From IMG/VR virus record IMGVR_UViG_2778261256_000009: a stretch of DNA of 12,617 nt; one strand, given 5' to 3'. Shown one piece after another: positions 2,591 through 10,778 of this stretch (position 1 is the stretch's first letter; each line of letters starts with the position of its first letter). The stretch comes from a virus. Taxonomy: Duplodnaviria; Heunggongvirae; Uroviricota; Caudoviricetes. The position numbers and the translations under genes are program-made. The notes under the pieces are model-generated. The model saw only the letters and a program-made list of their open reading frames with translations. It did not search any database and was not told the DNA's origin.

Positions 2591-2675
2591 AGTCAGAGAT
2601 AACAATCAACTAATACTGTTTTGTTGATTTTTGCTTGTAATTGGCGTTCTGGTCTGAGTTTTGTGGAGTAAGTTG

Positions 2676-3053
2676 ATGCGTGATATTCAGATGGTTCTTG
2701 AGCGTTGGGGAGCGTGGGCGGCTAATAATCATGAAGATGTGACCTGGTCGTCCATTGCCGCCGGTTTTAAGGGATTAATTCCTTCAAAAGTAAAATCTCG
2801 CCCACAATGTTGTGACGATGACGCGATGATCATTTGCGGGTGCATGGCCCGTCTGAAAAAGAACAACAGCGATTTGCATGATTTATTGGTGGACTATTAT
2901 GTCGGCGGCATGACTTTTATGGCGCTTGCACGTAAGCATGGGCGATCTGATTGTTGGGTTGGCAGGATGCTTCAGAAAGCTGAGGGCGTAGTGGAGGGTA
3001 TGCTGATGGTGTTGGATCTCCGATTGGAGATGGATGCTGATTGTTCGAAATAA
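2676..3053 (+). CDS. Q: Late-gene antiterminator Q (QuuD/phage-82-type)
   Basis: [33 protein letters not shown]...[31 protein letters not shown] resembles E. coli prophage QuuD-type Q (recalled). ATG at 2676 follows GGAG; the track ORF starts at an upstream TTG (2661). Confidence 0.85.
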
Positions 3054-3065
3054 TTAAAGGAAAAG

Positions 3066-3094
3066 TTGCTGTCTGATTGTCATTAGTCTAACAT
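3066..3094 (+). promoter_or_regulatory. Candidate late promoter (PR'-like), which would also carry the qut site
   Basis: TTGCTG (3066-3071), a 17-nt spacer, then TAACAT (3089-3094), located just downstream of Q and about 60 nt upstream of a terminator. This is the lambdoid PR'-qut-tR' layout. Hexamers are weak matches to consensus; position-based inference. Confidence 0.25.
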
Positions 3095-3153
3095 TTTAAA
3101 TGTTGGAATCGCAACGTAGTTATTATCATATAACAGCTTGTTTCCTGATTTAG

Positions 3154-3180
3154 CCAGCCTCCCCAAAGGCTGGTCTTTTT
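3154..3180 (+). terminator. Rho-independent terminator (tR'-like, end of the short late leader transcript)
   Basis: Stem CCAGCC (3154-3159) / GGCTGG (3168-3173), loop TCCCCAAA, then TCTTTTT. It also lies 3' of the convergent blc-like gene, so it may work in both directions, weakly on the minus strand. Confidence 0.6.
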
Positions 3181-3208
3181 CTAATAAGTATTATTTCGGG
3201 TAGGGATT

Positions 3209-3733
3209 TTATTGTTTAACCCATAATAATTCATTGACATTGAATCCCAACTTTTGAGCGGTTCGCACATAGTCTGCTTTTACTTTATCTGGAATAGTTG
3301 GGGTCCTTGCCAGAATCCATAGGTATTCTCTGTTCGGACCACTGACAAGAGCATACTTATACTCATCATCCAGTTTGATTACATTATAGCCACCATAGAA
3401 GGGGCCAAAAAACGAAACCTTCAATGCTGCAGTTTTAGTATCTCCAGTAAAGTATGCTTTACCTTCGCTCTCGCTCCATTTATTTTTCGTTGGATCGTAT
3501 CCACGGTTAAGTACACGAATCCCTCCGTCGTTCCGTTTTCCATAAGTAGCGCTGACCTGTTCCAGACCACGTTCGAACCGGTTCTCGAGGCGAGCTATTT
3601 CATACCATTTTCCGAGGTAGCGGTTGGCGTCAAAATTTGTAATCGGCTGCACACCTTTAGGTGGTGTCGGGGCCTTACATGCTATAAGAGTGAAAGAGAG
3701 TGCAATGCCAGTCAACACAGGCCATAACTTCAT
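3209..3733 (-). CDS. blc: Outer-membrane lipocalin lipoprotein, Blc family
   Basis: MKLWPVLTGIALSFTLIAC has a signal peptide and LIAC lipobox. ...NFDANRYLGKWYEIARLENRFERGLE...KVSFFGPFYGGYNVI...YLWILARTP strongly resembles E. coli Blc (recalled). Confidence 0.9.
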   Translation of the reverse strand: MKLWPVLTGIALSFTLIACKAPTPPKGVQPITNFDANRYLGKWYEIARLENRFERGLEQVSATYGKRNDGGIRVLNRGYDPTKNKWSESEGKAYFTGDTKTAALKVSFFGPFYGGYNVIKLDDEYKYALVSGPNREYLWILARTPTIPDKVKADYVRTAQKLGFNVNELLWVKQ

Positions 3734-3925
3734 AATAAATCCTGTACTTTTGATAGTTGAGAGTAAGTATGAAAGATAGATGATTACGACCGATCACTTA
3801 AAGAACTTTCATACTATATTAGGAATAGTCCATAACAGAAAAATTGTCAGTGATGACGCCAGAAAGGCAATTTATTCCGTGCACTACACAGTTTATGTGT
3901 TAATGAATTAGTCAAGGGGGAGAAT

Positions 3926-4885
3926 ATGATAAAAAAACCTGTGATTGGAATCAGCGGTTGTTTGGCCGGTTCTGCTGTTCGTTTTGATGGTGGTCACAAA
4001 AGAGCTGACTTTTTAATGGACAAATTAGTGGAATGGGTAACATTCAGACCAGTATGTCCGGAAATGGCTATAGGGCTGCCAGTTCCGCGTCCTGCTCTAC
4101 GTCTTGTGCGCTCGATGCAAGGAAATATACGGATGTGTTTCAGCCACGACCAGAATGAGGATGTGACAGAGAGAATGACAGAGTTTAGTCGTTCTTATAT
4201 GGACAAATTAAAGGATGTATCGGGGTTTGTGGTTTGTGCTAAATCTCCCAGCTGTGGCATGGAGCGCGTGCGTGTCTATGATGAAAATGGTAATCGAGGT
4301 CGTAAAGATGGAGTGGGACTATTTACGAGCACTTTGATGGAAAAGTTTTCCTGGCTACCGGTTGAAGAGGATGGGCGATTACATGATCCAGTGCTTCGTG
4401 AGAATTTTGTTGAAAGAGTTTTTGCTTTGCATGAGCTCAATCACCTTTACAAGGAGAAATTATCAAGAAGAGAGTTATTAGCTTTTCATAGTCGTTATAA
4501 GCTTCAGTTGTTGGCGCATAGTCAGGCAGGCTATAAAGATATGGGACCATTTGTGGCTGCAATACACGAGTGGGCGGACCTTGAATCATACTTTGAGGTG
4601 TATCGTGATAAGCTGATGGCGATTCTCAGAAAACCTGCATCACGTAAAAATCACACGAATGTGTTGATGCATATACAGGGGTATTTTAGTAACTACTTAA
4701 GTACACGCCAGCGTAAAGAGTTGAGCGAGGTTATACTTAACTATCGTTCTGGCACATTACCTCTTCTTGCGCCGTTGACTCTGCTGAAGCATTATCTGGG
4801 TGAGTATCCTAATGATTACTTGCTTACACAGAATTACTTCGATCCCTATCCGGACGAACTGGCTCTAAGACTGACGGTAAATTAA
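3926..4885 (+). CDS. DUF523 (TudS-like) + DUF1722 fusion protein, YbgA/RudS-like putative [4Fe-4S] thiouracil/4-thiouridine desulfidase
   Basis: N-terminal MIKKPVIGISGCLAGSAVRFDGGHK..RPVCPEM..VVCAKSPSCGME has Cys at approximately residues 12, 44, 104 and 110, consistent with the Cys ligands of TudS-family desulfidases. The C-terminal half resembles DUF1722 (YbgA-like). RBS AAGGGGGAG precedes the ATG. Family assignment is from memory. Confidence 0.7.
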   Translation: MIKKPVIGISGCLAGSAVRFDGGHKRADFLMDKLVEWVTFRPVCPEMAIGLPVPRPALRLVRSMQGNIRMCFSHDQNEDVTERMTEFSRSYMDKLKDVSGFVVCAKSPSCGMERVRVYDENGNRGRKDGVGLFTSTLMEKFSWLPVEEDGRLHDPVLRENFVERVFALHELNHLYKEKLSRRELLAFHSRYKLQLLAHSQAGYKDMGPFVAAIHEWADLESYFEVYRDKLMAILRKPASRKNHTNVLMHIQGYFSNYLSTRQRKELSEVILNYRSGTLPLLAPLTLLKHYLGEYPNDYLLTQNYFDPYPDELALRLTVN

Positions 4886-5227
4886 TTGTATGCGATATCA
4901 TCCAAAAGGATGAGTTCCTGCATGCAGGATATTTACAATCGTAAAAACTACACTATGATACCCAGAGTGTCAGTTTGTATAAAAACTCTGTTTACGCTGA
5001 AGAAACAATTGAGATGCAACTTAAAGTTGGTAAACATGCCAGTCAAAATATATAATATTATGATTCCACGCAGCTATATATAATATAACAGATTGGTTTA
5101 ATAATTTGTCTTTGTGAGTTAAATACATAATTTTATACTTGTGATGCAATGAAATTTTCCTTATTGTTGAACTGGCGAATATTGATTTTCCACCTATACT
5201 TACCTGGTGTAACCCCAATGATATCAG

Positions 5228-5968
5228 GTGGATAATATGCCATACATATGTTCTATCATTTTGGTGTTGAACTCGTTTGATGTCCGAATTGGTAAAGAAG
5301 ATATTTTGTTTAAAAAAGGAAGTGCTGTTCTCATTGATTACAATTTAAAAGATTTTTTTTCATCAAATATAGATCATGTAATGATCGTAGATGTTGAAGA
5401 GAAAACAGTTAATGATTTCTTTAAAAGCAACACACTCTCACCTTTTTCTGTAAGAAGGTTTTATCCGGCATACTTGATGGTGGAATGTGAAGATTTTTCA
5501 TTGTTAAAGAACTTGATTGCATGCTTGAATTGTGATGGCAGAACTGTGGATTTTGTTAGAAATCAAATATCACTTGCATGTCTTGCTATCTTATCTTCAG
5601 AGAAAATAGTGCAAAGTTTTTTATTTGGATGTCTTAATAGTTTAGGAAGTAAAGTTAAGGCTATTATTCACACGGATATATCTGCAGCATGGAGACTTTG
5701 TGATATATCTTCAAGACTGTATCTGAGTGAAAGTCTGTTAAAAAGAAAATTAAAGCACGAAGGCTTATCATTTAGTAAGTTAATTCTTGAAGAGCGAATG
5801 GTGATGGCGGAAAGGTTATTAAGCTACAATTTATATTCTGTTGGAAAAGTTGCTGAGATATGCGGTTATGAAAACACGTCATATTTTGTAAGTGTTTTCA
5901 GAAGGTATTTTGGTGTTCCTCCCCATCAATATTCATCAAGATTTTTTTTAGAAAAAGACATGATGTAA
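5228..5968 (+). CDS. AraC/XylS-family transcriptional regulator (C-terminal HTH), AT-rich
   Basis: The C-terminal region ...LYLSESLLKRKLKHEGLSFSKLILEERMVMAERLLSYNLYSVGKVAEICGYENTSYFVSVFRRYFGVPPHQY is a typical AraC-type double HTH. The gene and its 340-bp upstream region are markedly AT-rich. Start may be ATG 5228 or ATG 5237, which follows AGGTGG. Confidence 0.8.
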   Translation: MDNMPYICSIILVLNSFDVRIGKEDILFKKGSAVLIDYNLKDFFSSNIDHVMIVDVEEKTVNDFFKSNTLSPFSVRRFYPAYLMVECEDFSLLKNLIACLNCDGRTVDFVRNQISLACLAILSSEKIVQSFLFGCLNSLGSKVKAIIHTDISAAWRLCDISSRLYLSESLLKRKLKHEGLSFSKLILEERMVMAERLLSYNLYSVGKVAEICGYENTSYFVSVFRRYFGVPPHQYSSRFFLEKDMM

Positions 5969-6029
5969 CGTGATGCGTTTTAATGATTTTGTAATTTTCG
6001 TATTTGATAATTGTATGATGCTTTCAGCT

Positions 6030-6060
6030 ACGCCAGAATAATCGCGGCGTTTTTCTTTTT
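6030..6060 (+). terminator. Candidate intrinsic terminator downstream of the AraC-family gene
   Basis: Short stem ACGCC (6030-6034) / GGCGT (6046-6050) followed by TTTTTCTTTTT (6051-6060). The stem is weak, so confidence is modest. Confidence 0.35.
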
Positions 6061-6155
6061 GAATAGATGTTCAAGCCTTACGCTAATGTAACTTCTATAC
6101 CTTTCCTCTTCGTTCCGAACCGTGTACACCATCCGTTATTTGCGGAGGTGAGGCT

Positions 6156-6371
6156 ATGAAATCCATGGATAAGTTAACAACGGGTGTCGCCTATGGCACC
6201 TCAGCAGGTAGTGCCGGTTACTGGTTTTTACAGCTGCTCGATAAAGTCACGCCCTCACAGTGGGCAGCAATAGGTGTGCTGGGTAGCCTGGTATTTGGCC
6301 TGCTGACGTACCTGACAAACCTTTATTTCAAGATTAAAGAAGATAAGCGCAAGGCTGCGAGAGGTGAATAA
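6156..6371 (+). CDS. S: Class II holin / pinholin (phage 21 S-like), with dual-start motif
   Basis: 71 aa, [71 protein letters not shown]. Two Met codons (M1 and M4) fit the antiholin/holin dual start. Two hydrophobic segments; resembles S21/EssD (recalled). RBS GGAGGTGAGG. Confidence 0.9.
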
Positions 6372-6868
6372 TGCCTCCATCATTACGAAAAGCCGTTGCT
6401 GCTGCTATTGGTGGCGGAGCAATTGCTATAGCATCAGTGTTAATCACTGGCCCAAGTGGTAACGATGGTCTGGAAGGTGTCAGCTACATACCATACAAAG
6501 ATATCGTTGGCGTATGGACTGTATGTCACGGGCATACAGGAAAAGACATCATTCCCGGTAAAACGTATACCGAAGCAGAATGCAAAGCCCTCCTGAATAA
6601 AGACCTTGCCACGGTAGCCAGACAAATTAACCCGTACATCAAAGTCGATATACCGGAAACAACGCGCGGCGCTCTTTACTCGTTCGTCTATAACGTGGGC
6701 GCAGGCAATTTCAGAACATCTACTCTTCTTCGCAAAATAAACCAGGGCGATATCAAGGGCGCATGTGACCAGCTACGTCGCTGGGCATACGCTGGCGGTA
6801 AGCAATGGAAAGGCCTGATGACTCGTCGTGAGATTGAGCGTGAGGTCTGTTTGTGGGGGCAACAATGA
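6371..6868 (+). CDS. R: SAR endolysin (T4-lysozyme-like muramidase, R21-type)
   Basis: N-terminal Gly/Ala-rich weakly hydrophobic segment [20 protein letters not shown] (signal-anchor-release domain), then [25 protein letters not shown] carrying the E-x8-D-x5-T catalytic triad. Start overlaps the holin stop. Confidence 0.9.
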
Positions 6869-7329
6869 GCAGGGTAACCGCGATTATCTCCGCTCTGGTT
6901 ATCTGCATCGTCGTCTGCCTGTCATGGGGTGTTAATCATTACCGTGATAACGCCATCGCCTACAAAGAACAGCGCGACAAAAATGCCAGAGAACTGAAGC
7001 TGGCGAACGCGGCAATTACTGACATGCAGATGCGTCAGCGTGATGTTGCTGCGCTCGATGCAAAATACACGAAGGAGTTAGCTGATGCGAAAGCTGAAAA
7101 TGATGTTCTGCGTGATGATGTTGCCGCTGGTCGTCGTCGGTTGCACATCAAAGCAGTCTGTCAGTCAGTGCGTGAAGCCACCACCGCCTCCGGCGTGGAT
7201 AATGCAGCCTCCCCCCGACTGGCAGACACCGCTGAACGGGATTATTTCACCCTCCGGGAACGACTGGTAATGATGCAGGCCCAACTTGAAGGTGCTCAGC
7301 AATACATAACCGAGCAGTGTTTAAAGTAA
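6865..7329 (+). CDS. Rz: Rz i-spanin
   Basis: ATG at 6865 overlaps the endolysin stop (ATGA). N-terminal TM segment [21 protein letters not shown] followed by a charged, coiled-coil-like periplasmic domain. Resembles lambda Rz. Confidence 0.85.
7085..7270 (+). CDS. Rz1: Rz1 o-spanin lipoprotein, embedded in the +1 frame of Rz
   Basis: [53 protein letters not shown] has a lipobox (VVGC) and a proline-rich mature region. Lies wholly inside Rz in another frame, the classic spanin arrangement. Confidence 0.8.
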
Positions 7330-7466
7330 AATCTTAACTACAATATGATTCATTTTGATGATTGTTTCATAAGGAACAGTGAAGTAAGATCTAAGAGGAG
7401 TTAAATTTTATACAGTATAATCATAATATTGCAGCAAGGTGGTTATAATTGAAAGAATATTTAGAT

Positions 7467-8924
7467 ATGAATACATCTCATGTAAGAGTTGTTACTCATA
7501 TGTGTGGGTTCCTGGTTTGGCTCTATAGTCTTTCAATGTTGCCACCAATGGTTGTAGCATTGTTTTATAAAGAAAAAAGCCTGTTCGTTTTCTTTATAAC
7601 TTTCGTTATATTTTTTTGCATTGGTGGCGGAGCGTGGTATACAACTAAGAAATCTGGCATTCAATTACGTACCCGTGATGGGTTTATTATAATTGTAATG
7701 TTTTGGATTTTGTTTTCTGTTATTAGTGCATTCCCTTTATGGATTGACTCAGAACTTAATTTAACGTTCATTGATGCTCTGTTTGAAGGGGTTTCTGGAA
7801 TAACAACAACAGGAGCAACTGTAATTGATGATGTTAGTTCATTACCTCGGGCATATTTGTACTATCGGTCACAGTTAAATTTTATAGGTGGTTTAGGAGT
7901 TATTGTTCTGGCGGTTGCTGTATTGCCATTATTGGGTATTGGTGGTGCAAAGCTTTATCAGTCAGAAATGCCGGGGCCATTTAAGGATGACAAACTCACT
8001 CCCCGCCTGGCCGATACGTCACGGACACTGTGGATAACTTATTCTTTATTAGGTATTGCTTGTATTGTCTGTTATAGACTTGCAGGAATGCCTTTGTTTG
8101 ATGCTATTTGTCACGGGATTTCCACAGTTTCGCTTGGTGGTTTCTCAACTCATAGCGAGAGTATCGGATATTTTAATAACTATTTGGTTGAGCTGGTGGC
8201 TGGTTCTTTTTCCCTGCTATCGGCTTTCAACTTCACTCTTTGGTATATTGTTATTAGCAGGAAAACGATAAAACCTTTAATCAGAGATATTGAACTTCGT
8301 TTCTTTCTGTTAATAGCCTTAGGGGTGATCATTGTTACCTCTTTCCAGGTCTGGCATATAGGTATGTATGACTTGCATGGAAGTTTTATTCATTCGTTTT
8401 TTCTTGCCAGCTCCATGCTCACTGATAATGGTTTAGCTACGCAGGATTATGCAAGTTGGCCCACGCACACGATAGTGTTTTTGCTGTTGTCAAGTTTCTT
8501 TGGGGGATGTATAGGTTCAACTTGTGGTGGAATTAAGTCACTTCGATTTCTTATACTTTTCAAACAAAGCAAACACGAGATAAATCAGCTTTCTCATCCC
8601 AGAGCGTTGTTGAGTGTAAATGTAGGAGGGAAGATAGTTACAGATCGTGTAATGAGGTCTGTATGGAGTTTCTTTTTTCTTTATACTCTCTTCACGGTGT
8701 TTTTTATACTGGTGTTAAATGGTATGGGATATGATTTTCTTACATCATTTGCAACAGTGGCTGCATGTATTAATAATATGGGATTAGGTTTTGGGGCTAC
8801 TGCATCGTCATTCGGAGTGCTTAATGACATTGCAAAATGTTTAATGTGCATAGCTATGATTCTTGGTCGCCTTGAAATTTATCCTGTTATTATATTGTTT
8901 TCAGGTTTTTTTTGGCGCTCCTAA
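7467..8924 (+). CDS. trkG: TrkH/TrkG-family potassium uptake transporter (Rac-prophage TrkG-like)
   Basis: 485-aa polytopic membrane protein from ATG 7467, MNTSHVRVVTHMCGFLVWLYSL..., with several glycine-containing selectivity-filter-like P-loops (e.g. GVSGITTTGATV, GISTVSLGGFS, ACINNMGLGFG). AT-rich. Matches E. coli K-12 TrkG as recalled. The track ORF starts at an upstream TTG (7449). Confidence 0.9.
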   Translation: MNTSHVRVVTHMCGFLVWLYSLSMLPPMVVALFYKEKSLFVFFITFVIFFCIGGGAWYTTKKSGIQLRTRDGFIIIVMFWILFSVISAFPLWIDSELNLTFIDALFEGVSGITTTGATVIDDVSSLPRAYLYYRSQLNFIGGLGVIVLAVAVLPLLGIGGAKLYQSEMPGPFKDDKLTPRLADTSRTLWITYSLLGIACIVCYRLAGMPLFDAICHGISTVSLGGFSTHSESIGYFNNYLVELVAGSFSLLSAFNFTLWYIVISRKTIKPLIRDIELRFFLLIALGVIIVTSFQVWHIGMYDLHGSFIHSFFLASSMLTDNGLATQDYASWPTHTIVFLLLSSFFGGCIGSTCGGIKSLRFLILFKQSKHEINQLSHPRALLSVNVGGKIVTDRVMRSVWSFFFLYTLFTVFFILVLNGMGYDFLTSFATVAACINNMGLGFGATASSFGVLNDIAKCLMCIAMILGRLEIYPVIILFSGFFWRS

Positions 8925-9061: not shown

Positions 9062-9853
9062 ATGAGCGAGAAATTAAAGATAGTCTATCGCCCATTACAA
9101 GAATTGTCACCGTATGCGCACAACGCCAGGACGCACAGCCCTGAGCAGGTGGCACAACTGGTAGAAAGTATTAAGCAATTCGGCTGGACTAATCCGGTGC
9201 TGATTGACGAAAAGGGCGAAATTATTGCGGGTCACGGTCGTGTTATGGCGGCTGAAATGCTCAAAATGGATTCTGTTCCGGTCATTGTTCTGTCTGGCCT
9301 GACGGATGAGCAGAAAAAGGCGTACCGCCTGGCAGATAATCGCCTGCCGATGAATGCTGGCTGGGATGAAGATCTGTTGCGGATGGAGCTGTCGGACCTA
9401 ATCAATGCTGATTTTGATGTCTCCCTGACAGGCTTCATCCCGACAGAAATTGATGAACTGTTGACGGATGTTTTGCCCGGTACAGGAAATGAGGAGGAGC
9501 CGTATACGACGAAAATTGATACGCCTGTTTATGAGCCGTCGGGCGGTAAACCGGATATCAGTGAACTGTACGACGATACGAAAACTCAGGAGCTGATCAG
9601 CCGGATACGTTCGGCGTCCCTTGAGCCTGATATTGAGAAATTCCTCCTGTGTGCGGCAGAACGTCACACGGTGTTTAATTTCAGCAGAATTGCGGACTAT
9701 TACGCTCACGCCCCCTCTGAAATTCAGTGTTTTTTCGAGGAGTCGGCGCTGGTGATCATTGATTATCAGCAGGCTATTGAAAATGGATTTGTCCGGATGA
9801 CGCAGCGCATGGTGGAGATCATGCATGGTGGTGAGGAGGAGGAATATGCGTGA
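9062..9853 (+). CDS. ParB N-terminal-domain (ParB/Srx-like nuclease domain) protein, YnaK-like
   Basis: The N-terminus LKIVYRPLQELSPYAHNARTHSPEQVAQLVESIKQFGWTNPVLIDEKGEIIAGHGRVMAAEML shows the ParB-N fold signature, including a GxxR box. C-terminus is acidic. Occupies the position after trkG that ynaK holds in Rac (recalled). Confidence 0.75.
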   Translation: MSEKLKIVYRPLQELSPYAHNARTHSPEQVAQLVESIKQFGWTNPVLIDEKGEIIAGHGRVMAAEMLKMDSVPVIVLSGLTDEQKKAYRLADNRLPMNAGWDEDLLRMELSDLINADFDVSLTGFIPTEIDELLTDVLPGTGNEEEPYTTKIDTPVYEPSGGKPDISELYDDTKTQELISRIRSASLEPDIEKFLLCAAERHTVFNFSRIADYYAHAPSEIQCFFEESALVIIDYQQAIENGFVRMTQRMVEIMHGGEEEEYA

Positions 9854-10778
9854 TGATTTTTGCGCCTTTATTCTGACTCACGGGCGACCGGACAAAGTTC
9901 TGACTTACCGGACGTTGCGTCGTGCTGGCTATACCGGGAAAATTTTTATCGTTGTTGATGATGAAGATAAGACACGGAATCAGTACATGGCTGAATTTGG
10001 TGAACAGGTGCTGGTGTTTTCCAAAGCCGATATCGCCAGTCGTTTTGACGAAGCCGATAATTTCTGTGACCGCCGCTCAATTTTTTACGCCCGTAATGCC
10101 TGTTTCGACCTGGCAAAACTGGTCGGGTGTAAATACTTCATTCAGCTCGATGATGATTATCACGAGTTCCAGTTTCGGGTGGATCGCAACTATGACCAGG
10201 CCTATTTTCCGATAAGGAAACTGGATGCGATCCTTTCTGAAATGCTGGCGTACTACGAATCAATACCTGCTCTTTCCATCGCTATGTCGCAGGGCGGGGA
10301 TTTTCTTGGTGACAATGGCGGCCATGCTTCGTGGGTGAAACGCAAGGCAATGAACAGCTTTATCTGTTCGGTTGATCGACCGTTCTCATTCATGGGGCGC
10401 ATTAACGAGGATGTGAATACGTACACGAATCTCGGTCGCTGTGGTGAATTGTTTATGACGATCGGTGCTGTCCAGTTAGGGCAGAAACAGACGCAGAAAA
10501 ACAGCGGCGGAATGACCGAGCTGTATCTGGATTCCGGAACCTACGTTAAAAGTTTTTACTCCGTCATGTATGCGCCGTCGTGCGTAAAAATCTCACTGAT
10601 GGGTGCCAGCCATAAACGCATTCACCATCAGGTCACCTGGAACAACGCTGCAGTAAAAATCCTTCACGAAAAATACAGGAAGAAGACACCCTGCATATCA
10701 ATGGGGGTGACAAATGATTCCGTATTCGAAAGTCGAGTCTCTGGCAGCGTGCCGGATGACTGCACAACAAATCGCTGA
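9846..10778 (+). CDS. Uncharacterised protein with a GT-A-fold-like motif pattern (possible nucleotide-sugar transferase); function unknown
   Basis: ATG at 9846 follows a strong GAGGAGGAGG RBS and overlaps the ParB-like stop by 8 nt. The pattern FILTHGRPDKV .. IFIVVDDEDK .. YFIQLDDDYH resembles the beta1 / DD / DxD layout of GT-A glycosyltransferases. This is a motif-level inference only. Confidence 0.55.
   Translation: MRDDFCAFILTHGRPDKVLTYRTLRRAGYTGKIFIVVDDEDKTRNQYMAEFGEQVLVFSKADIASRFDEADNFCDRRSIFYARNACFDLAKLVGCKYFIQLDDDYHEFQFRVDRNYDQAYFPIRKLDAILSEMLAYYESIPALSIAMSQGGDFLGDNGGHASWVKRKAMNSFICSVDRPFSFMGRINEDVNTYTNLGRCGELFMTIGAVQLGQKQTQKNSGGMTELYLDSGTYVKSFYSVMYAPSCVKISLMGASHKRIHHQVTWNNAAVKILHEKYRKKTPCISMGVTNDSVFESRVSGSVPDDCTTNR

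Follow-up and report, generated by a model that had tools for sequence, protein, structure and literature searches.

Can a prophage gene that stands between a late antiterminator and the lysis genes be taken to encode an enzyme that removes sulfur from tRNA, and, if so, would the enzyme serve the lysogen or the phage? The question is raised by an open reading frame (ORF), here called rudS, at positions 3926..4885 (+) of a 12,617-nucleotide stretch of Caudoviricetes DNA, IMG/VR virus record IMGVR_UViG_2778261256_000009 (the whole stretch being referred to below as the window). An initial annotation, made from the letters only, had proposed a TudS- or RudS-like protein that might remove 4-thiouridine (s4U) from tRNA. 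From comparison of sequences we put at about 0.85 the probability that the ORF encodes an intact phage-borne RudS, a [4Fe-4S]-dependent tRNA s4U8 desulfidase. The molecular function is itself already known: a 93% identical phage RudS has been expressed and was shown in 2024 to erase E. coli tRNA s4U.

The ORF is as first described in coordinates, strand, start codon and length of product: it opens with an ATG at 3926, runs for 319 codons on the plus strand to 4885, and is the only occupant of that interval. A purine-rich Shine-Dalgarno stretch, read from the sequence as the ribosome-binding site (AAGGGGGAGA, 3914-3923, +), is just 5' of the ATG, and RefSeq annotates this 960-nt coding sequence in other strains too. 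Searches with Rfam, at gathering thresholds, and with ARAGORN gave no RNA genes anywhere in the window.

Both domains that had been suspected, DUF523 and DUF1722, are placed in the one protein by Pfam, and far over the cut-offs. PF04463 ('2-thiouracil desulfurase', formerly DUF523, the TudS domain) matches amino acids (aa) 7-149, encoded by nt 3944..4372 (+), with E=4.5e-40 and 137 bits against a cut-off of 34.7. PF08349 (DUF1722) matches aa 192-309, encoded by nt 4499..4852 (+), with E=5.8e-41 and 140 bits against a cut-off of 22.5. Each match spans the entire profile, of 141 and 117 positions respectively. The product is filed as PHROG 3275, 'unknown function', and by RefSeq as 'YbgA family protein' or 'DUF523 and DUF1722 domain-containing protein'. 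The name 'YbgA family protein', which arises because the C-terminal half matches the YbgA model, fits only half of the product. The match to that NCBIfam model (NF007549) is confined to aa 160-315 and scores 191 bits, below the equivalog cut-off of 237, and identity with YbgA was rejected. E. coli YbgA (b0707) is a stand-alone DUF1722 protein of 169 aa, with no TudS domain and no effect on s4U. Membership of the stand-alone TudS class (~150-170 aa, no DUF1722) is likewise at odds with a protein of 319 aa with a fused DUF1722.

RudS is defined by Jamontas et al. (Nucleic Acids Res 2024, PMC11417400) as a fusion of a TudS with a DUF1722 domain, acting to remove tRNA s4U, and one of the proteins characterised there, RudS_vir, is Escherichia phage 1H12 gp66 (H3V29_gp66 / YP_009909557.1). 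The window protein and 1H12 gp66, both of 319 aa, are identical at 298 of 319 positions (93%) with no gaps, and Cys12/44/110 and the catalytic residues are the same in both. When six RudS orthologues, RudS_vir among them, were overexpressed in E. coli BL21(DE3), tRNA s4U fell significantly, 4.7- to 26-fold overall; the significant lowering by RudS_vir was established by high-performance liquid chromatography with tandem mass spectrometry (PMC11417400). The loss of tRNA s4U that the initial annotation envisaged has thus been demonstrated for a 93% identical protein. What does not survive is the novelty claimed for it as an 'unusual moron function', both the function and the key expression test then proposed having been published for RudS_vir in 2024 (PMC11417400). 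In RudS homologues, replacing the cysteines mostly led to loss of activity, and in RudS_KT (Pseudomonas putida PP_0741) residues E51, S111, S113 and R60 are essential, with their mutation abolishing activity (PMC11417400). A literature search pairing RudS with prophage returned unrelated papers only, and no follow-up study of a phage RudS.

The residues on which activity depends in the characterised enzymes are present in the window protein. The cluster cysteines, C12, C44 and C110, are at the positions given for RudS_vir and RudS_ST (PMC11417400 Table 1), in accord with the TudS-type cysteine spacing remarked on at the outset. In alignment with TudS 6z92, C12, C44, E46 and R55 match TudS cluster ligands and catalytic residues, C12 and C44 pairing with TudS C10 and C43. 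An exhaustive HMMER search gave 6557 relatives at E up to 0.001, and conservation was assessed on 139 full-length representatives, each sharing 37-56% identity with the window protein. At least 95% of these keep each of C12, R19, C44, P45, E46, R55, S107, P108 and C110, every one of which the window protein also has. The three cysteines are conserved in 135-137 of the 139. The catalytic residues expected of a RudS-type enzyme, all four of them in the window protein, are found in 138 (E46), 138 (S107), 137 (R55) and 131 (S109) of the 139 relatives.

Structure prediction, which had been suggested as a check, points the same way. An AlphaFold2 model of the product has a mean predicted local distance difference test score (pLDDT) of 70 and a predicted template modelling score (pTM) of 0.74, and its DUF1722 domain is all-helical. 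In a Foldseek search of the Protein Data Bank (PDB), TudS entries were the sole matches at E<0.001 (probability 1.00, template modelling score 0.63-0.65 normalised to TudS). A sequence search for solved structures gave none besides TudS 6z92.

Comparison with other known systems is also pertinent. RudS_ST (Salmonella LT2 STM1389 / ORF319) and its Citrobacter, Enterobacter and Kluyvera orthologues have the same 319-aa architecture and cysteine positions and are 70-77% identical to the window protein. RudS_KT, the mechanistic reference, has the same fusion architecture and is distant, representatives with its cysteine numbering being ~42% identical to the window protein. The equivalences drawn with RudS_KT residues rest on numbering offsets and conservation across the 139 representatives, not on direct alignment: by offset, RudS_KT C17/C49/C114, E51, R60, S111, S113 and R24 become C12/C44/C110, E46, R55, S107, S109 and R19. 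RudS_KT Y25 is F20 in the window protein, and a RudS_KT Y25F mutant is fully active (PMC11417400); RudS_KT N26 is D21, as in TudS. Stand-alone TudS (DUF523 only; PDB 6z92), a desulfidase of 4-thio-uridine monophosphate (4-thio-UMP) and thiouracil, shares the catalytic-domain fold and the [4Fe-4S] ligand pattern, at ~26% identity over the aligned structure, but has no DUF1722 and leaves tRNA s4U undiminished in vivo.

If the window protein acts as family work indicates (PMC11417400, PMC10611767), its TudS domain would hold a [4Fe-4S] cluster on C12, C44 and C110, and the free fourth iron would bind the sulfur of 4-thiouridine. E46, oriented by R55, S107 and S109, would activate a water, and s4U8 in folded tRNA would thereby be converted to uridine with its sulfur released as sulfide. 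The helical DUF1722 would, as in RudS_KT, dock the anticodon arm, with tRNA thereby preferred over free thionucleotides (PMC11417400). Gene order suggests that rudS would be made at least in late lytic transcription. More speculatively, loss of the near-UV chromophore s4U8 could lead to less UVA-induced tRNA cross-linking, growth delay and stringent response, with possible benefit either to a lysogen, E. coli having no chromosomal rudS, or to phage protein synthesis after sunlight-triggered induction.

Is the gene maintained in phages? In an IMG/VR scan 154 viral contigs encode a relative, and counts of loci use the best 80 of them, all at least 97% identical. rudS is full length in 80 of the 80, and the order Q(+), blc(-), rudS(+), then holin and lysozyme, is found in every one as far as the contig reaches; the AraC-like gene is present at 71. 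Twelve deposited E. coli phage genomes carry rudS, with IdasGreatGrand at 99.1% and the 1H12 group at 93.4%, these being deposits of complete phages. The 1H12 gene order is as in the window, i.e. Q, blc(-), gp66, an unannotated gene at the place of the AraC-like gene, and holin. The two differ downstream, where the window phage has trkG, a ParB-like gene and a TAGT gene and 1H12 has a Bor-like gene instead. Between the window and 1H12 alleles dN/dS (Nei-Gojobori) is 0.11 overall, and since it is 0.19 in the TudS half and 0.08 in the DUF1722 half, both domains are under purifying selection in phages. As the selection on DUF1722 exceeds that on the TudS domain, DUF1722 would appear to be needed.

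Within the host species the gene is common. Of 5426 complete E. coli genomes, 1136 (21%) carry it, 1064 of them with at least 80% of the gene covered, and it is almost always chromosomal. The window allele is the commoner, with 595 genomes at 99% identity or above versus 110 in the 90-95% band. The statement that E. coli lacks RudS (PMC11417400; 2026 review PMC13602947) is true of K-12, not of the species. A degraded prophage in one complete E. coli genome still keeps the cassette, and some E. coli copies are truncated or interrupted by an insertion sequence (IS); in at least one strain, LF3-1, the rudS annotation is split around IS1. Two occurrences filed under other bacteria look like mis-binned enterobacterial or phage DNA. 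One is JARKOR010000151.1, a 3.2-kb contig binned as 'Candidatus Nanosynbacter', whose rudS fragment and AraC-like gene are 93% and 98.8% identical, respectively; the other is URSI01000001.1, binned as 'uncultured Clostridiales', with a 74% identical rudS of enterobacterial type.

When would the gene be expressed? The window comes from a lambdoid prophage, whose late-regulatory and lysis region it represents, and the matching prophage in complete E. coli genomes sits at att-lambda, between ybhC and ybhB/bioA. The prophage location first put forward therefore holds, with rudS lying between Q and the holin, lysozyme and Rz genes. The late-gene antiterminator Q is encoded at 2661..3053 (+; PF06530, Pfam E=2.5e-51). 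About 100 nt after its stop codon, a terminator scan found a GC-rich hairpin with a T-run at 3153..3183 (+), the sole terminator-like site on either strand in 2600-6400, and one that is kept in phage 1H12. In lambdoid phages tR', the terminator overridden by Q, lies at such a position, and the hairpin presumably functions as tR'. Because rudS is on the same strand between this candidate tR' and the holin gene, late transcription reaching the lysis genes must cross it, and to judge from gene order rudS is probably co-transcribed with the lysis genes whenever Q activates them. Stx phages carry toxin genes between Q and the lysis genes.

Promoters are less informative. A scan gave 13 sites versus 11.3 expected from shuffled sequence, and no rudS promoter was assignable. 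Reading by hand gave TTGCTG-N17-TAACAT at 3066-3094, on the downstream side of Q; it falls below the threshold of the scan, and taking it for pR' is only a guess. The two best promoter-like sites of the region (10/12 matches), at 4932-4959 and 5027-5056, are just upstream of the AraC/XylS-family gene. A promoter belonging to rudS itself might also drive its expression in the lysogen.

The neighbour of rudS on its upstream side bears on where the gene came from. At 3209..3733 (-), divergent from rudS, is a gene for a blc-type outer-membrane lipocalin lipoprotein (Pfam Lipocalin_2; NCBIfam Blc, 316 bits versus a cut-off of 267). The nearest chromosomal homologues of the window RudS are in Citrobacter (76-77% identical). 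Citrobacter braakii has its rudS last in a cluster with SnoaL, SDR, amine oxidase, DUF1365, CFA synthase, DUF2878 and DUF3833 genes. An unannotated 175-aa protein beside Citrobacter rudS was considered as a Blc relative and rejected (E=4.3). In the chromosomal loci of 15 of 80 enterobacterial species, including species of Enterobacter, Leclercia, Lelliottia, Kluyvera, Buttiauxella and Raoultella, the phage arrangement recurs, with a Blc homologue encoded upstream of rudS and on the other strand; these homologues are 74-82% identical to the phage Blc. No gene separates blc from rudS in Kluyvera; in Enterobacter two genes do, one for a MerR/MlrA-type regulator and one that is transthyretin-like. 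Chromosomal rudS thus has either a MerR/MlrA-type regulator adjoining (Enterobacter) or a place at the end of a gene cluster (Citrobacter), and rudS gene contexts in general have been described as light-responsive (PMC11417400). Unlike Enterobacter chromosomal rudS, the phage gene has no MerR-type regulator and is in a Q-dependent late region. Because Blc homologues stand divergently upstream of rudS in those 15 of the 80 loci, the phage blc-rudS pair looks, on gene arrangement and protein similarity, like a module captured from an enterobacterial chromosome without the MerR-type regulator. Alignment of the blc-rudS intergenic regions of the phage and Kluyvera showed nothing convincing in common beyond the coding ends.

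Several points weigh against the assignment as a tRNA desulfidase, or against the expression proposed for it. The tested protein is RudS_vir, from which the window allele differs in the alignment at 21 residues, none of these substitutions being at known catalytic positions, with ~8% nucleotide divergence in the gene. The tRNA desulfidation by RudS_vir itself 'appeared to be lower' than that by other RudS despite high soluble protein (PMC11417400). In a uracil auxotroph RudS_vir gave the shortest lag on 4-thiouracil among the six RudS, growth being supported partly and not rescued as by TudS (PMC11417400). Being weaker on tRNA and best in 4-thiouracil rescue, RudS_vir may have a shifted substrate preference. 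The AlphaFold2 model is of moderate quality, with pLDDT <50 in the C12 loop (aa 12-29) and at the C-terminus (282-319). S239/R240, which by numbering offset would correspond to RudS_KT S243/R244, the DUF1722 residues in contact with the anticodon region, are invariant among enterobacterial homologues, but across the family their columns are moderately conserved (T 77 / S 38; R 83, of 139). Promoter-like sites are at chance level, so that the timing of expression is taken from gene order alone. Finally, the MerR-type regulator that is beside chromosomal rudS is missing in the phage, and light regulation is not to be assumed. Even so, given the intact active site, the two complete domain matches and the activity of RudS_vir, the molecular identity of the product as RudS is very likely.

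Whom a phage RudS would serve is another matter. A possibility deserving real weight, though we give it less than even odds, is that RudS serves the lysogen, being made in the prophage state from its own promoter and giving E. coli faster recovery from near-UV growth delay, with the late operon simply the usual landing site for cargo. The neighbours blc, the AraC-like regulator gene and trkG are all host-type cargo with atypical GC, and the resemblance of blc-rudS to a copied enterobacterial chromosomal module is in keeping with this, as are retention of the cassette in a heavily degraded prophage and its presence in 21% of complete E. coli genomes. The UVA growth delay of E. coli was shortened by ~45 minutes by RudS_KT, the sole RudS in that experiment (PMC11417400). 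However, the sole promoter candidate upstream of rudS matches at 9/12 positions, a score met at chance-level frequency, the phage lacks the MerR regulator that adjoins Enterobacter rudS and is thought to give light induction, and under overexpression constitutive s4U loss made growth slower after 3 h (PMC11417400).

A fuller proposal is that the phage acquired blc-rudS from an enterobacterial chromosome, that the MerR-type regulator was lost and that the module came under the Q-dependent late promoter, with RudS stripping s4U8 from host tRNA upon induction by sunlight (UVA plus UVB) as a genuine phage function. Taken as a whole this chain of steps is tentative, and we lean towards doubting it.

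It is unlikely that the enzyme acts mainly, as TudS does, on small thiolated molecules, i.e. 4-thio-UMP, 4-thio-uridine triphosphate (4-thio-UTP) and 4-thiouracil derived from tRNA degradation, e.g. in phage-induced RNA turnover. Uracil nucleotides would then be recycled and thio-UTP kept from phage transcripts, with demodification of intact tRNA a side activity. The short 4-thiouracil lag and lower tRNA desulfidation of RudS_vir would be accounted for, all TudS active-site residues are in the window protein, and stand-alone TudS favours 4-thio-UMP >2000-fold over the free base. Yet RudS_vir did not give TudS-like growth support on 4-thiouracil and did significantly lower tRNA s4U, and DUF1722 is under the stronger constraint of the two domains (dN/dS 0.08 vs 0.19). 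That rudS is an inert passenger or decaying remnant without activity, as the IS-interrupted or truncated copies in some E. coli might suggest, is highly improbable and was rejected on the overall dN/dS of 0.11 and the integrity of the gene in 80 of the 80 best viral loci, to which the intact catalytic residues and the activity of the 93% identical allele can be added.

Upstream of Q are NinB (385-843), a Dam-type N6-adenine methyltransferase (780-1367; PF05869), NinX (1501-1884) and RusA (2091-2453). The end of ninB is overlapped for 64 nt by the methyltransferase ORF, counted from its first possible start codon, and the methyltransferase gene is annotated as frameshifted in strain 81EVA. Downstream of rudS, and the third cargo gene ahead of the lysis genes, is that for the AraC/XylS-family (YdeO-like) regulator (5228..5968, +; Pfam HTH_18/HTH_AraC). 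It is very AT-rich (30-32% GC), is filed as PHROG 1450, 'unknown function', and has YdeO as its best NCBIfam match, far under the cut-off; we take it to resemble E. coli prophage-borne AraC-like regulators such as AppY and PatE. Lysis genes follow on the plus strand as ORFs for holin (6156-6371), lysozyme (6371-6868) and Rz with Rz1 embedded (6853-7329), which RefSeq names essD, rrrD and rzpD, respectively, in matching genomes.

The Rz spanin gene is followed, ahead of the ParB-like gene, by trkG (7449-8924; PF02386 E=5e-145; 35-40% GC). The potassium transporter that it encodes, TrkG, is full length, and the lambdoid prophage around it, at att-lambda, looks complete. The trkG of E. coli K-12 is in the defective Rac prophage and is followed by the ParB-like ynaK. 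The ParB-like gene of the window (ParB/Srx N-terminal domain; 9062-9853) overlaps by 29 nt a TAGT-family glycosyltransferase gene (9825-10778; PF20691 'TET-associated glycosyltransferase', E=8e-35), downstream of which are the terminase genes, the pair being directly upstream of that for the small terminase. The glycosyltransferase is called 'beta-glucosyl-HMC-alpha-glucosyltransferase' by PHROG and 'GREB1-related protein' by RefSeq, and no TET/JBP dioxygenase is visible alongside it within the window. The pair may be a DNA-modification or anti-restriction module. Mobile elements have entered the prophage segment in some strains. In the best-matching genome (100% identity), that of strain 2018-18.25PC, the segment contains an ISApl1-flanked mcr-1.1 colistin-resistance transposon, and in others there are insertions of IS1, IS2, IS3, IS5 or ISKpn26.

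With the identity of the product assigned, the PHROG 3275 'unknown function' and RefSeq 'YbgA family protein' labels can now be corrected. The position of rudS between Q and the lysis genes makes the coupling of tRNA demodification to prophage induction a testable hypothesis. If the proposed phage function is real, a virus would be rewriting the tRNA modification state of its host and so escaping a host light-stress checkpoint, and about one in five E. coli strains would owe to a prophage s4U levels and a near-UV physiology unlike those of K-12. As 21% of complete E. coli genomes carry rudS, differences between strains in near-UV growth delay, in the burst of guanosine tetraphosphate (ppGpp) and in tRNA s4U content could depend on which of them harbor the prophage.

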